A stretch of DNA of 7,680 bases, from the IMG/VR virus record IMGVR_UViG_2541047778_000001. One strand, written 5' to 3'. Positions within the stretch are counted from its first letter, which is position 1, and each line of letters opens with the position of its first letter. A program made the position numbers and the translations under genes. The notes under the pieces were generated by a model. The model did not search any database and had not been told where the DNA came from. It saw nothing but the letters and a program-made list of their open reading frames with translations. This stretch comes from a virus. Its lineage: Duplodnaviria > Heunggongvirae > Uroviricota > Caudoviricetes. This document shows, piece after piece, positions 1 to 7,680 of this stretch.

Positions 1-41
1 CGTTGACGGACTTCGGGGGAAAAACGAGTATTTTTAGTCAT
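1..41 (-). CDS. IS629-like transposase OrfA, first 13 codons only (partial, runs off the window)
   Basis: ATG at 39-41 (minus strand) sits about 8 nt after AAAGAGGTAAACAGG. The translation MTKNTRFSPEVRQ matches my memory of the IS629/IS1203 OrfA N-terminus. Confidence 0.7.
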   Translation of the reverse strand, partial: MTKNTRFSPEVRQ

Positions 42-95
42 CCTGTTTACCTCTTTCTCAGGAAGTTTAGTCTCCAGGATTCCCGGGGCGGTTCA
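1..95 (-). mobile_element. IS3-family insertion sequence (IS629/IS1203-like), left end with terminal inverted repeat; element continues leftward beyond the window
   Basis: Reverse complement of 61-95 reads TGAACCGCCCCGGGAATCCTGGAGACTAAACTTCC, which has the TG terminus of IS3-family ends and matches my memory of the IS629 left end. It is followed by a GAGG-type RBS and an ATG opening MTKNTRFSPEVRQ. A 23/25 inverted copy of the same terminal motif lies at 7586-7610. Confidence 0.8.
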
Positions 96-1057
96 AGCTG
101 TTTATCAGAAATGCCACCCAGACCATCGCTAAATGTTCTGACTAAATTTTCTCGTGCTTGTTGTTGATTCAGCCGATTCTTACCGGTTCCAAAAAAAGGA
201 ACTCTTTCGCCTAATGTCTGAGCCTGACTCTGCATAAAGGTTTTATCTTTCAGCGTGTCACTGGTCATTAACGGCAGGTTTCTTTCCGACGCAAAATCGA
301 CAGCAGCCTTTGCTTCCGGTGACATCTCACCGCGAACAGCCCTGGAAACCGCACTAACTGTATTTTCCAGCCCCTTGCCAACACCACCAATGCCAGCAGA
401 AATTACCGTTTGTGCAGGATCAATATCTTCTCCGCCAGCAAGGCTGGTGCCACCCTGTAGTGCTAAATCTGTAGCAGCTGATTTCCCTATGGCACCAAGC
501 ACCGTTCCAGCCCTGCCCGCTGGTGTGAACGCTAACGCATTAGCAAGAAACGAAGTCAGGTCTTGCGGTGATAAACCTGGCTTGTTCAGGGCATAATCAC
601 CGGATGGCAGGGAAACGATAGTGTTACCCTTCTCATCCTGCCTTAATTTCGCCCCCATACTCTGAAGAATCTTTTCCTGAGACGCGTCGGAGCCGAAAAG
701 TTGAGACCATCCAGCCTTCAGGGCATCCATGCTTAGTGAGTTCAACTCAGGGGCAGCCCCAACATTTTGCAGTCTCTCCATTTCTGGTGTCATTCGGCTT
801 TCACCGGTAACGGCATCGCGCATTGCAGCACCTAAAACAGCCCCTTGCTCAGCAGAGCGATCTAGTCCTTCCTTCTGCTGAGTGGCAAGCTGTGCATATC
901 CTGATGCAAGTGAGTTGTCTGCTGGCGATTGCTGAACACCTTGTTGTGTTGGCGCTGACTGACCAGCAAAATACTCATCAATGGCGGACCCAATATCTTC
1001 CGTGCTCGTACCATCAGGAAAGGTAAATGTCTTACCATTTGCAGTTACTTTCATCAT
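47..1057 (-). pseudogene. P22 gp16-like DNA-ejection (internal virion) protein, 3'-truncated by the IS insertion; native part is 96-1057, the last 15 codons and stop are IS-derived
   Basis: Position in the gp7/gp20/gp16 ejection cassette. The N-terminus [23 protein letters not shown] is followed by a Gly/Ala/Gln-rich sequence. The ORF is about 336 aa, whereas P22 gp16 is about 609 aa as I recall. The frame runs straight across the IS terminus at 95 and ends EPPRESWRLNFLRKR, encoded by the IS inverted repeat. The start overlaps the gp20-like stop (ATGATGA). Confidence 0.75.
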
Positions 1058-2505
1058 TCCACCGTAAATTGAATGCCTGATTTTGACGTGTAGCTACCTC
1101 CTGCTGATTGCTGAGTAGCTGGCTGTTGCCTTGATGATTTCTTCCCGCCATTACCAACATTAACGTTATATTGCTGGTTGTAATTGTCGGTATATTGCTG
1201 AATGTCGCGCATTGATTGTTGCAGCGCTTCAGGACTTGAGAAATCAGGCTTTGGCATACCCTGAAAATACCTATTGGCCTCTGCTTCGGTGTTGATGCCA
1301 GATGCCCCCATATCTCGGGCTGCTGCAATCCCCTGATTTTGCATTTTGCCCATGATTCGCTGTGCAGCGTTGTATAGCCTCCTCTCCTCAACACCAGATG
1401 CCCTGCTACGAATATCTGCACCAAGAGCAAAAGAACCTGAAGAACCTGTAATACCTGTCATGAAGCCAAGATCGTCAATTGATGCGCCAGAAATTGCATC
1501 AAGATCTTTCTTCATTTCGTAATTCTGTGCATTAGCTGCCGATGTAGCCGGAGCAGCAATAGAACTGGCGGGGACGCGAATCATATTGCCCTCGTTGTCT
1601 ATTCCTTCGTAGAACGCATTAGCACCAGCGCCGTGAAGCTTCCTACCAACCGTTACCGTTCTGCCATCTGCCAGTTGCACAACATTCTCCCCGCCAGCAT
1701 CAGGACGACCTCGAACACGAAGATATGTCTTTTGTTGCTCTGGAGACAGGCTGTTGAAATATTGATATTCTTTAACAGATGCAGGAACAGCACCTCCAGC
1801 AGTGCGCAGGGAGTTTTCACGGCTAACAGCAATGCTTTGCGCCTTTAAACCTTCCCCAGCTTTATTGCTGCGAATCGTCTCTGCCAACTTGCCACGCTCA
1901 ATATCCCGACCTTCCATTTGATCTTTGATATCGAAATACTTCTCATGACCGAGAGAAAATAGTGCCAGATTACCTGCGAAGTGCTGGAAGCCCTGCGGGT
2001 CATTAACCTGCATTTCCGCAATAGTTTCTGGAGGGATACCTAAACGACGCATCTCCTTTTCGTTATCCATCATGAACCTGCCAAATGCACCCGGACCAAG
2101 CGACGAAGCGACCTGAGCCTTAAGCGCCAGATTGCCAAAATCATCCCGCTGGGCGTCATCGACATACCCCATGCCTTTACGGACTTCCTCAAACTCTTCG
2201 GGGAATGCTGTAATAAGATTACGCATCTGCTCCCTGTCGCCGGACGCATAAGCATCCGCATAACCTTTCTGGAATGCCGCTTTACGCTCCTGCTTTTGCT
2301 GCTGCTTATAAATATCAGCAACTCCAGCCAGACCACGAAGACCTGTCAGAGCAACGTTATTTGCACCTGATCGAGCCAGTTCATTGTTTTCGCGGATCAG
2401 ACCAAGCGTTGCGTTAATGTCGCTTGCCTTTGGCGCATTCTCATTTTGCGTACCGATGCCAGCCAGAAACCCACCAGAATTAATACCCTGTTGCCACGTA
2501 GCCAT
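1054..2505 (-). CDS. P22 gp20-like DNA-ejection (internal virion) protein
   Basis: 483 aa (P22 gp20 is about 471 aa as I recall). It lies between the gp7-like and gp16-like genes. Composition is rich in Q, N, A and G, including a tail [26 protein letters not shown]. The ATG is preceded by AAGGGGTAATCA. The stop overlaps the gp16-like start. Confidence 0.8.
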
Positions 2506-2515
2506 TGATTACCCC

Positions 2516-3208
2516 TTAAAACAACGAGCCAAGCAGACCAAGACCAGCACCGATACCAGCACCCCACGGAGTTGATAGCTCGAGAGCACTGGCTATGCCA
2601 CCACCCAAAAGCGCACCGGATGCAGCACCACTAACACCCTGCTGCAATGCTGACGGTCGGTTGGCGTTTGCCGCTGCAAGAGCCGCGCTTTGCTGTGAAA
2701 TCTGACTCATGTTGTTGGCATATGTTTGCCCGGCGTTTGCCTGCCCCTGAAGAGCGCCAAGACCGATATTTGCCAGGTTGTTGTAATTGTTCATTTGTCC
2801 AGATAGCCATTGCTGACCAAGCGTTGGTGCGATTGTTGCTAACTGATTACTGGTTGCGGTGGAACCCAATCCACCTGTTGCTTCCGCTGCCGCCAGACTC
2901 TGATAGCGAGCCTGACCTGCAAGGTCTTTATACTGCTGAGAGTTGTAATACTGGTTAAGTGCCTGACCTTGCCCTTCCAGAGACGATAAGTTCTCAAGGC
3001 TGCCGACATACTTCCCAGCCAGAGGAGTAAACAGCTTCAGGTTGTTCATGATGGTGTTGAACTGCTGATTTTGCAGGTCTGCGGCATACTTCTGAGCTTC
3101 TGCTGCATACTTTGCGCTTTTATCAGAACTGCCACCTTTCCCGCCTTTTTCAGGGTAATAAGGTTCCTCGCCGCGCAGTTTTCTGCCCAGCGTAAATGCA
3201 TATAACAT
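2516..3208 (-). CDS. P22 gp7-like DNA-ejection (internal virion) protein
   Basis: 230 aa (P22 gp7 is about 229 aa as I recall). The body is low-complexity Q/N/A/G-rich. The C-terminus is Gly-rich and hydrophobic (GALLGGGIASALELSTPWGAGIGAGLGLLGSLF). RBS GGGAGA lies upstream of the ATG at 3206-3208. Confidence 0.75.
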   Translation of the reverse strand: MLYAFTLGRKLRGEEPYYPEKGGKGGSSDKSAKYAAEAQKYAADLQNQQFNTIMNNLKLFTPLAGKYVGSLENLSSLEGQGQALNQYYNSQQYKDLAGQARYQSLAAAEATGGLGSTATSNQLATIAPTLGQQWLSGQMNNYNNLANIGLGALQGQANAGQTYANNMSQISQQSAALAAANANRPSALQQGVSGAASGALLGGGIASALELSTPWGAGIGAGLGLLGSLF

Positions 3209-3210
3209 GG

Positions 3211-3666
3211 CTATCTCCCGTGATTCAGGAAGTCGATTAGTTCTTCGCGTGTGGCGCTGTAAAACGTCACGTCATCCACGCCTTTGAAGTATTTCTTGAT
3301 GGTTCCTACACGCTTAAGGCCAATCATTGCGCAGTACATCTGCCCGTGGCGGAATTTGCGTGCAGCAAATGATGTGACGCACTGAACGGTGGTGTTGGTC
3401 AGAATGTATCGCCAGAACGCCAGCCCTATTTCCTTGCTGAAGCCGCGAATCTCTGGCAGGTACATGGCGTGGCAATCGAATGTAAGCGGCTGAATCTCCT
3501 GATAGTAAACAATGCCGCCAAACTGACCGTGCACGTTCACCTCAAAGTAACGGCAATCAGGTTTGTAGTCGTATCCATCACCGTTGTTGCTCCCGGCGAT
3601 GATGTCAGGGTGATTTCCTACTGCTTCGATCAGGTCGATGTTTCGCGTTGGTTTGAATGTAATCAT
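3211..3666 (-). CDS. Protein at the gp14 position of the P22-like module (ejection-protein assembly factor by synteny); function not recognisable from sequence
   Basis: 151 aa ORF whose ATG overlaps the tail-needle stop (ATGA at 3664-3668). It lies between the needle and gp7-like genes, as gene 14 does in P22. I do not recognise the sequence itself ([43 protein letters not shown]...). Confidence 0.55.
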   Translation of the reverse strand: MITFKPTRNIDLIEAVGNHPDIIAGSNNGDGYDYKPDCRYFEVNVHGQFGGIVYYQEIQPLTFDCHAMYLPEIRGFSKEIGLAFWRYILTNTTVQCVTSFAARKFRHGQMYCAMIGLKRVGTIKKYFKGVDDVTFYSATREELIDFLNHGR

Positions 3667-4367
3667 CAGTCAATCAGCCCATGTAATCTAAGTGCTGTTT
3701 CAAGCGCCAGAATACGCTGCCGCGCCTGCTCCAAACCTGTAGCGATAGCTGCGACTTCGGATTGTGTGTACGTAGTGCCGACCGTGTATGACTGGTTAGC
3801 GTTGAATGAGCCAAGAAGTGGTGTGCCTGTGGCCGCTGTCCATCCGGTCTGCCTTGCTCCAACGACCTGAATTCCATCAACTGAATATGATGTTTTTACA
3901 TCCAGCGGTGACGCAAGAGACTGCGATTCTGTTACGGTTTTCGATACGTAATCACTCTTAATGTCAGATATATCGCTTTCTACGCCATCCAGTCTTTGGT
4001 CAACAGTGACCAGATGCGCCTGAATATCGATAACCTCATCCAGCAAGTAATCAACATCGCTACGCAGTACAACTATCTTCCCTTCGGCGGTTGTTAACCT
4101 GACCTCAAGGAGATTTATCGCTTTTGTGTTTGCGGTGATTCTTGCATCGTGGTCAGCCAGTTCGACATCCTGTTCATCGTTTTTCACCTGAGCATCGTAA
4201 GCGCCCTGACCAGCCTGATTTGCTTTCCCGGCAATTGCGCCGACATCAGCCCCCTGATTAATGACATACAGCAGGTAAGACTGGCTGAATATATTGCGTG
4301 GAAGGATTGATGTATCGAGCCGCGTCGCCTGCACAATAACAGGGGTGTTGAGATTCGAATCAGCCAT
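3666..4367 (-). CDS. Tail needle (P22 gp26-like), short form of 233 aa
   Basis: N-terminus [36 protein letters not shown] matches my memory of the P22 gp26 N-terminal portal-plug domain. A heptad-like coiled-coil region follows. Length 233 aa equals P22 gp26. The start overlaps the gp10-like stop (TAATG). The ORF track's longer 267-aa version (start at 4469) is an upstream read-through into the gp10 gene. Confidence 0.85.
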
Positions 4368-5785
4368 TACTCGATCCTTATCTGGCAGCCAGACAGAGTG
4401 ACAGGTGACTTCGTGATAACGCGCAATTTGAAGCCGACATTTTTCCTGATGCGCCCGACTCGCTTCCACAAAACGCGTTTGTCGTAAACAAACGGTTCAT
4501 TCTGCTCAATCATCTGCTCACGACCGTAATTGATGCCGTCAGTGGTTGCAGAGAGAAAAAGGCGGTCGGCGTACTGCGCAACGCCAGTTGAAGATTCAAC
4601 TTCAAGGTCGAAAACTCTGGCGTTATCCGCTTTGAACAGAGGAGTAAACAGCAGATGCTCCTGTTGCTTGTCGTACTGGCTGCTGATGTCGAATTGCAAT
4701 TTCCCGGTCACGGACTCCAGCTTATCGCCGCACGTTATCTGATTGCCTTCGTAAATGAAGTCGATAGCGCGGTACACATCGTCATACAGACCTGTTTTCA
4801 GTACACACCATTGCGGAGCATTGGCGCTTGAAGATGCGTCGTATACGAGGACATGGCGCGGAAGATGGATAATCAGCAGCTCATGCGCATCAAATCGCAG
4901 AGACTCCATCACACCATCAGCCAGTTCATCAGCAGTGTAGGAGCGAAGAATTTTCTCAATGCTCGCGCTGGCGATTGGTGACACCTGCCCGGAACCGATG
5001 ATGTATACAGACGGCGCACCTGTTGCCGGATTGCTGATGAACGCATAGGAATCAGCGAATGGCGTTTTGCAATAGGTTCCGGCGATGCCTTTTTGCACCA
5101 TCAGTGATGGCTGTGCGACATACAAAGCAGCACCAACGGTGGTTGCGCCAGTCAGGGAGAAATATTCAATAGTCGATGAACCAAAGCAGACGATGAAGTC
5201 TCGCCATGTCCCGATACCGATGATGCCGTCCGGCTGCGATTCTGCGCGATATTGTGCACTGTATCGGTCAGGGTGCGATTCGTCTTCAAGGTCAGTGATA
5301 AACCATGAATCAGTTCCGTCTTTTGACCACGCATAACGCCCACGTAAGCGAGTAATGTCGCGAACTGAACCTAACTCATACTGCGTGAATCCACTGTCTG
5401 TAGGCCAGTTTGAGACGGTTTTAACCGTGCCATCATAACGATACTCGACCAGTTGACCATTAACGCCTACAGCCTGTGATGTTCGACCATGCGCCATTGA
5501 TACGCGACCACTTCCGGCGACGTCACCGACTTCGCTTTCTCCTTTGTACAGCTTGCCGCCACACACGCGATAAACAGCACTCTGCGCCATGTTGTACTCG
5601 ACGCCGCGCGATATACCATTCACATCAGAACGTTTGGCAATGCCCGGGAATGAGCGAAGATATCCGCTGCTGTTCAGGATTTCTTTGGGCGTAGCCAACA
5701 TATTCACTGGCAGATAGTCGATATAGTCGGCGTTTCGAAAGTCTTTGCCGACACCTTTCATAAGCGGAAGTTGCTGAATCGGCAT
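4367..5785 (-). CDS. P22 gp10-like head-completion / tail hub protein
   Basis: 472 aa, the same length as P22 gp10 as I recall. N-terminus [58 protein letters not shown] lies 6 nt upstream of the ATG. It sits between the gp4-like and needle genes. Confidence 0.85.
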
Positions 5786-6466: not shown

Positions 6467-7585
6467 TTACTGCCCAGCAATAACGATGCCCGTATATTCA
6501 GGAACCAGTACAGAGCAACCGTACAGAGTGGTGAAACGCGCAGTGGTTACGCCTTTGATGTGGTCGAAGGAGTAAGACATGATCAGCGTAGCGCCCTGCT
6601 CGGTGGTTGCTGTCATTACCTGTGGACCCTGACCAGTTGGGAACGCCAGTTTGCCGTACATCAGTTCAACAGAACCATCAGCCCAGAACAGGTTAGCAGG
6701 TGCTGCGTTCTTGTTGAGAATGGTGATTGCTGCTGATTCTGCCGGTTTGGCATCGACGTTTGCATATGGACGACTCGCAACATCAGTATTTTCAACAGGG
6801 AGAATCTTTGGAGAAATTGTTACGGTAGTTCCGCTAACAGCCAGAACACGGAATACCTGCGGTTGACCGGTGGTATCTTTTGTGATCTGGTGTACGGAAT
6901 TCACACCGGCAATGGTGAACGCATCACCAACCTGCAAGCCAGATGCAGATACCGTAATAGTCCCCTGTCGGTTATCAACTGGCATACCATTTGAATCTTT
7001 CGCTTCAACCTTGTGTTCAGGTTGGCCTGATACTGTCAAGGATTCAGTGCTTCCTTTCGGTAATCGACCAGAAATATCGGTCTTGTAGCTATCGAAGGAC
7101 GCAACCGGAGGGATTTGCGCTTTTTCGTATGCTGTCAGGGTTGCGCCCTGAGCATAGGCACGGTGACCAAGCTCGCCAGCAAGGTCTTTGTAGTTGAAGG
7201 GGTTCCAGAAAGAGCGACGGTTGATACCCTGAGGTACACCAATCGCCGTCATGGTGGCATCAATACCTGCCGCACAGTTCCACAAATCACGGCCCTGTGT
7301 ACCTGCGGTTGAGTCAGCCATCGTGATCACGTTAGTAGCACGCTGCGTGACCATGGAAATCAGGTCAGAGTCAATCTGTGCAGCAAGGCGCATACCTGCG
7401 GCGCGACCAGCTTCAGTTTTATGTTCCGGATCACGCATTTCACGCGCATCCAGAGTGTACAGAATGTTTTTCGGCTCCTTGAACACTGAAGGAACAAGGC
7501 GCTGAACCAGTGCTGTTGGCGTTTTGCTGCTGAGGTCGAGGCCTTCCTCAATATTCATGTGGTAATGCTGCGGACGATACAGAAC
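6467..7585 (-). pseudogene. P22-type major coat protein, 5'-truncated by the IS insertion (about 45-55 N-terminal codons missing)
   Basis: The 363-aa ORF aligns by eye with remembered P22 gp5: EGLDLSSKTPTALVQRLV vs EGWDLTDKATGLLELNV, RSFWNPFNYKD vs TSYFFNPQDYKK, and RPYANVDAKPAESAAITILNKNAAPANLFWADGS vs [34 protein letters not shown]. Its Met-1 corresponds to about residue 55 of P22 coat. The frame stays open 9 codons upstream to the IS boundary at 7585 and on into the IS until TAA at 7616-7618. There is no Shine-Dalgarno before the ATG at 7556-7558. Confidence 0.8.
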
Positions 7586-7680
7586 TGAACCGCCCCGGGT
7601 TTCCTGGAGAGTGTTTTATCTGTGAACTCAGGCTGCCAGATCATCGTTTCCGATGGAAGCATAATAAGCTTTTTCTGCTT
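7586..7680 (-). mobile_element. IS3-family insertion sequence (IS629/IS1203-like), right end with terminal inverted repeat; element continues rightward beyond the window
   Basis: Plus strand 7586-7620 reads TGAACCGCCCCGGGTTTCCTGGAGAGTGTTTTATC, matching my memory of the IS629 right inverted repeat. It matches 23/25 of the terminal motif at the left window edge in inverted orientation. Confidence 0.8.
7628..7680 (-). CDS. IS629-like transposase OrfB, C-terminal 16 codons plus stop (partial, runs off the window)
   Basis: Minus-strand frame gives ...AEKAYYASIGNDDLAA then TGA at 7628-7630, 42 nt inside the IS terminus. This is consistent with the end of an IS3-family OrfB, but I cannot confirm it from memory. 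Confidence 0.5.
   Translation of the reverse strand, partial: AEKAYYASIGNDDLAA

Follow-up and report, generated by a model that had tools for sequence, protein, structure and literature searches.

Probable simple insertion of IS629 into a gp16-type ejection gene of a grounded CUS-3-like prophage in Escherichia coli HVH 127

The stretch of DNA analysed here, a window of 7,680 nucleotides, carries late (virion) genes of a CUS-3-like, P22-family prophage in which the gene for a gp16-type ejection protein has been split, very probably by the simple insertion of an IS629 element into what is now a grounded prophage. The window comes from the draft genome of the clinical E. coli isolate HVH 127 (4-7303629; GCA_000457855.1), where it makes up exactly one contig of scaffold KE700025.1, flanked by two runs of N, and corresponds to positions 3375-11054 of the HVH 127 locus (L003), reverse-complemented. 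IS629 ends bound the window on both sides.

The open reading frame at 47-1057 on the minus strand crosses from the gp16-like gene into the IS and gains the 15-residue IS-encoded tail EPPRESWRLNFLRKR, as the original prediction had described. Starting at the upstream ATG, at 1057, the product would have 336 residues; the RefSeq-style start for identical genes is the second ATG, at 1054, and the resulting 335-residue fusion product is EQR52832.1 of E. coli HVH 127, with an exact protein match in one scaffold only. Its first 320 residues are identical (320/320) to the 670-residue S88 protein WP_000868966.1, annotated as a 'P22-gp16 family phage DNA ejection protein'. The IS terminus predicted at position 95 was recovered from both directions, as the end of an annotated IS629 maps there and similarity to intact prophages in a megablast search begins at the same base, while window bases 1-95 match thousands of IS copies in 5,426 complete E. 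coli genomes. Base 95 itself (T in gene sense) is common to the native codon CTT and to the terminal TGAACC of the IS. The stop codon had been placed within the IS inverted repeat, but the TAA lies about 20 nt past this repeat of about 25 nt, and 6 nt ahead of the ATG of IS629 orfA. We suggest annotating the reading frame as part of a gp16-family pseudogene that IS629 has disrupted, of which it forms the 5' fragment. Coordinates of the features discussed below are collected in the table.

Table. Positions in the window of the split gp16 gene, its neighbours and the bounding IS629 ends.
Feature	Position	Strand	Basis or remark
IS629 left end, IS positions 95..1	1..95	-	94/95 vs annotated 1310-bp IS629, LC567824.1
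Truncated gp16-like fusion ORF	47..1054	-	335 aa = 320 native + 15 IS-encoded codons + TAA
IS-derived tail EPPRESWRLNFLRKR + stop TAA	47..94	-	TAA at window 49-47 = IS positions 46-48
Native gp16-family 5' part	95..1054	-	codons 1-320/670; 100% identical to S88 and ATCC 11775 prophage copies
T7 run (a7 on + strand) in gp16	187..193	-	frameshift site in UMEA 3206-1 homologue
gp20-like ejection protein, 483 aa, intact	1054..2505	-	Pfam PF16928 (Inj_translocase), E 9.9e-81; annotated in S88
gp7-like ejection protein, 230 aa, intact	2516..3208	-	Pfam PF25688 (P22_gp7), E 8.2e-129
5'-truncated coat gene	6467..7585	-	native from codon 46/417; Pfam PF11651 profile positions 60-423 only
Second IS629, right end	7586..7680	-	95/95; same orientation as gp16 copy

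The element carries the terminal sequences of IS629 and imperfect inverted repeats with TG...CA ends. The terminal inverted repeat has 23/25 matches, and IS positions 1-25 fall at window 95-71. The reference copy, in the Stx2a phage LC567824.1, is annotated with the target-site duplication (TSD) AGG. orfA begins with the ATG at window 41-39, and 13 of its codons are present before the contig ends; the TAA of the fusion ORF falls within the AGAGG ribosome-binding region of orfA (window 41-49). In gene sense the scaffold then runs from the gp16 5' part through the 95-nt IS left end, 1040 N and a 95-nt IS right end to the gp16 3' part. The right end across the gap is identical to IS629 at 95/95 positions, and the span of 95 + 1040 N + 95 amounts to 1230 bp, compatible with one IS629, an element of 1310 bp with orfA, orfB and a programmed frameshift. 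With the interior of the IS given as N, it is from the mate-pair scaffolding and its gap estimate that we infer a single complete IS629 here and a physical link between the halves of gp16.

Beyond the IS, the 3' half of gp16 consists of 350 intact codons with 100% identity to S88, and the next 3.4 kb is also 100% identical. The insertion point lies between nt 959 and 960 of the 2,013-nt coding sequence, with the IS co-directional with the gene. Across the junction the sequence reads ...GATAAACAGCT, IS, TTATGAATCTG..., compared with ...GATAAACAGCTTTATGAATCTG... in the intact gene, so that 0 bases are lost and 0 duplicated. A 3-4 bp TSD was not found at this site, where the flanks CAGCT and TTATG (L003 10960 and 12190) sum to the intact CAGCTTTATG. 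In O157:H7 genomes a TSD is present at only 21/47 IS629 sites (PMC3271280). An insertion of IS629 without a TSD is thus atypical but not rare. The copies described in O157:H7 (PMC3271280) have a length of 1310 bp and resemble this one in their TGAACC...GGTTCA ends and their imperfect terminal repeats of about 25 nt, and also in striking prophage structural genes, in having adjacent IS-associated deletions and in showing no target sequence preference. They differ in that the host here belongs to an extraintestinal K1-type lineage with a CUS-3-like prophage, and in that the gp16 copy of HVH 127 has contiguous flanks and lacks the 3-4 bp duplication. The HVH 127 copy might reflect a non-canonical route of IS629 integration that preserves the flanks and leaves no TSD.

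Elements of the IS3 family transpose by copy-out/paste-in. We propose that a 1.3-kb IS629, a member of this family, entered the gp16-type ejection (DNA-transfer) gene by this pathway and in the same direction as the gene. A ribosome on the 5' fragment would then carry on past the junction into the untranslated IS left end and meet the first in-frame stop after 15 codons. The product lacks the C-terminal 350 residues; with them go the one strongly hydrophobic segment and the greater part of what is conserved with P22 gp16. That these 350 codons are unmutated beyond the IS points to a recent simple insertion that would have knocked the gene out, and the perfect identity of both gp16 halves to intact alleles suggests that this insertion and the other lesions of the prophage are recent. 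We also considered whether the 3' half could be expressed from the right end of the IS, where its frame is open for 209 nt into the IS with ATGs at IS 1234 and 1252; a convincing ribosome-binding site is absent there, and the idea was set aside.

The original prediction had raised the possibility of an IS-mediated rearrangement, with a 3' half of gp16 displaced to another place in the genome. In such a case recombination between IS629 copies would have carried the 3' half elsewhere or removed it, and the IS end in the window would mark the breakpoint. The prophage does contain at least three IS629 copies, two of them at deletion breakpoints, the missing TSD is often a mark of recombined IS copies, and the linkage across the IS depends on scaffolding through N gaps. 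However, when the displaced half was sought it was found directly past the IS-sized gap, collinear with intact prophages, and the flanks sum exactly to the S88 sequence, which recombination between differently placed copies would not give. Because the 3' half stands right behind the same IS, with flanks that fit to the base, a simple insertion is the reading that we favour, and we regard a rearrangement as very unlikely.

The same fit bears on whether the junction could be an assembly artefact, in which an IS629 end was misjoined in a repeat-rich draft and gp16 is really intact. Both ends of the window coincide exactly with contig breaks caused by repeats, and only one assembly shows the junction. 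It was absent from the 5,426 complete E. coli genomes searched by megablast, and a scan for the exact junction gave 0 matches in GTDB representative genomes and 0 in JGI metagenome contigs. Against a misjoin, the two junctions come from separate contigs, each assembled independently, and they agree with one another to the base. In a second isolate, HVH 59 (GCA_000456885.1), gp16 is interrupted by an analogous IS629 whose 1310 bp are assembled in full (L007 10870-12179). This copy lies 90 nt (30 codons) upstream of the HVH 127 site, in the opposite orientation and with the 3-bp TSD AAC, and leaves a truncated gp16 product of 302 aa ending EPPRVSWRVFYL. Since the HVH 59 copy is complete, it validates the IS boundaries used for HVH 127. 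An artefact is in our judgement even less probable than a rearrangement, and the insertion of IS629 into gp16 can be taken as real.

The gene that received the IS is well placed within the gp16 family. BLASTP matches residues 179-652 of the intact S88 allele to residues 151-592 of P22 gp16 (E 1e-53), with 30% identity over 470 residues. The alignment crosses the break, which falls at codon 320 and corresponds to about residue 268 of P22 gp16. In tblastn searches the S88 allele matched 'DNA transfer/injection' proteins of phages N7, SPN9CC, BTP1 and APSE end to end, and these phage homologues cover residues 1-670 of the intact allele. The 335-residue product has a precomputed match to Pfam PF26808; scans of a local Pfam copy and of NCBIfam returned no family for the truncated, intact or 3'-half protein, and a PDB sequence search with the intact protein gave no match. 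With these searches empty, homology was therefore established by tblastn and by BLASTP against P22 and other phages. The likeness to P22 gp16, Sf6 gp13 and HK620 gp16 extends to gene position, as all are the last gene of a gp7-gp20-gp16 ejection block, and to a C-terminal hydrophobic segment in the intact allele, whose only strongly hydrophobic stretch lies at about residues 584-625. Compared with the 609 residues of P22 gp16, the intact allele has 670, with a divergent N-terminal region of about 180 residues, and the copy in the window retains residues 1-320 only, followed by 15 foreign residues.

The prediction that the gene is cut in mid-length is borne out by these comparisons, as is the length of about 609 aa that it gave for P22 gp16. 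Published family sizes are 609 aa for P22, 665 aa for Sf6 and 722 aa for HK620 (PMC8954989), so that full-length homologues of about 320 aa, the finding that would have spoken against a truncation, were not what we observed. At least 80% of the 2,013-nt gene is present in 397 complete E. coli genomes, and in a sample spread across these the gene match was one uninterrupted piece in 60/60 rows. The product in the window has 320 native residues against a full family length of about 600-720 aa and lacks the hydrophobic segment near the C-terminus, a putative membrane segment; we class it as the truncated product of a pseudogene and an incomplete member of the family. That it is instead a natural short form or a neo-functional fragment, for example one that benefits the host by interfering with incoming P22-like phages, is barely credible: the frame of the N-terminal fragment is open, its stop abuts the ribosome-binding region of IS orfA and independent truncations occur near codons 288-290 in two other strains, but every complete genome sampled has an uninterrupted gene of about 2 kb, phage homologues have 609-722 aa, the fragment ends a late operon that is silent in the lysogen and has its upstream part deleted, random decay would account for the differing mechanisms and positions of the three truncations, and no family or structure match points to a separate N-terminal function.

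The neighbours of gp16 are those expected of a P22-type late operon. Upstream and on the same strand lie, in order, the truncated coat gene, a gp4-like gene (P22_Tail-4 in Pfam), a gp10-like gene (Phage_stabilise), a gene in the needle position, a gene in the gp14 position (DUF2824), gp7 and gp20. The order gp14-gp7-gp20-gp16 matches S88 and also P22, in which gene 16 comes after gene 20, and the stop of the gp20-like gene overlaps the start of gp16. The protein in the needle position has no Pfam match. Its gene appears in a mechanical ORF list at 3666-4469, with a GTG start and 267 aa; its homologues in S88 and HVH 127 are annotated with 233 aa, from an ATG overlapping the stop of gp10. As the operon ends with gp16 and the next gene is on the opposite strand, a polar effect of the insertion is not expected.

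To describe the state of the prophage we aligned the 21-kb HVH 127 locus with the intact prophage of S88. This homologous prophage sits between intS and torI/dsdC, and the HVH 127 locus shows the integrase side; integration at argW, beside dsdC, and an endosialidase tailspike are characters of CUS-3. A neuO heptanucleotide tract next to the integrase is a criterion for CUS-3 (PMC3046976), and the HVH 127 prophage combines P22-like virion genes with a retained integrase and, beside it, a hexapeptide acyltransferase gene (neuO) that follows a long AAGACTC repeat tract. The phase-variation VNTR of neuO (AAGACTC) occupies L003 18624-19260 and is interrupted by a 455-N gap. As far as CUS-3 is described through the citation of King et al. 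2007 in PMC3046976, where it is a K1-specific phage, the likeness covers the P22-type order of virion genes and the neuO gene with an AAGACTC tract adjoining the integrase; related loci show a remnant of an endosialidase-type tailspike. Unlike CUS-3, the HVH 127 prophage is defective: IS629 is present in three copies, gp16 is split and two stretches have been deleted.

The second IS629 joins terminase codon ~235 to coat codon 46 and replaces 4,046 bp of S88, comprising the 3' part of the terminase gene, the portal gene, the gene in the scaffold position and the 5' end of the coat gene. The S88 alignment stops at L004 17187, inside the coat coding sequence, and the longest coat ORF that remains has 363 aa, from an ATG at 7558. 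In the region L003 16614-18089 a third IS629 end, inverted with respect to the other two, abuts the antirepressor gene (ant). At this lesion up to 3,098 bp are missing, namely the 3' part of ant and most of the endosialidase-type tailspike gene, with the far junction in an N gap. The tailspike has 982 aa in S88, and a 3' remnant of it is seen in the HVH 127 locus. That the second and third copies stand at breakpoints is typical of IS-adjacent deletion, or of one IS copy recombining with another.

The window differs from the S88 prophage by 17 mismatches, all of them within 7094-7553, in the 5' region of the coat gene; the other 7 kb of the window and 8.7 kb of locus flanks are 100% identical to S88. 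The patch at 7094-7553 is in turn 100% identical to the prophage allele of UTI89, NU14 and IHE3034. We considered that these mismatches might mark foreign DNA brought in between two IS copies and rejected this, as the patch is a UTI89-type allele. The divergence in the coat 5' region is best read, from the alignments, as ordinary allelic mosaicism.

In P22, gp16 is a virion protein that is ejected and that the DNA needs in order to cross the cytoplasmic membrane; virions that lack it fail to deliver DNA to the cytoplasm (bioRxiv 10.64898/2026.09.03.749273). The expectation that the loss of half of this protein would abolish infectivity is therefore sound in principle, and in HVH 127 it is moot. 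Since this prophage has lost its portal and scaffold genes, the 3' part of terminase, coat codons 1-45 and the bulk of the tailspike gene, particle assembly is impossible; given that no particles can be made, the gp16 lesion adds no functional loss. We suggest that the prophage be labelled a defective CUS-3-like element. It is conceivable that read-through of the late operon could couple translation of the fusion frame to transposase synthesis, but the idea is speculative because the late operon is silent and beheaded in this prophage.

The split of gp16 is real, but it is an ordinary IS knockout in a grounded prophage and a case of ordinary decay. IS629, CUS-3, gp16 and the knockout of prophage genes by IS elements are all well known, and the junction is a further instance, of little importance beyond annotation. 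It provides a clean example of why draft contigs end in IS termini and of how the view of a single contig invites over-reading of a fusion ORF. It also adds a small data point on the activity of IS629 outside O157:H7 and on the decay of neuO-carrying prophages in K1-type strains. Mildly interesting are the insertion itself, which preserves its flanks and lacks a TSD, and the fact that, in sister clinical isolates, this prophage and this gene have been hit repeatedly and independently.

With regard to these repeat hits, HVH 127 has three IS629 copies in its CUS-3 prophage, and HVH 59 has at least three more at different sites, one of them in gp16. It is possible, though in our view unlikely, that such hits reflect selection for grounding, in which virion production is killed and the capsule-modifying neuO is kept. 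The 90% cluster of this protein contains many 'partial' proteins of 275-336 aa, and we rejected a breakage hotspot as their explanation because nearly all of them end natively at contig ends, the length range being set by the clustering. The frameshift in UMEA 3206-1 may be a third, independent inactivation, or it may stem from a sequencing error. The homologue in that strain, EQY01772.1, has 292 aa and ends ...PFFWNR*, as a +1 slip in the T7 run predicts. Further IS629 copies or fragments in the HVH 59 prophage lie at L007 3223-4812, 15455-15673 and 16944-17522.
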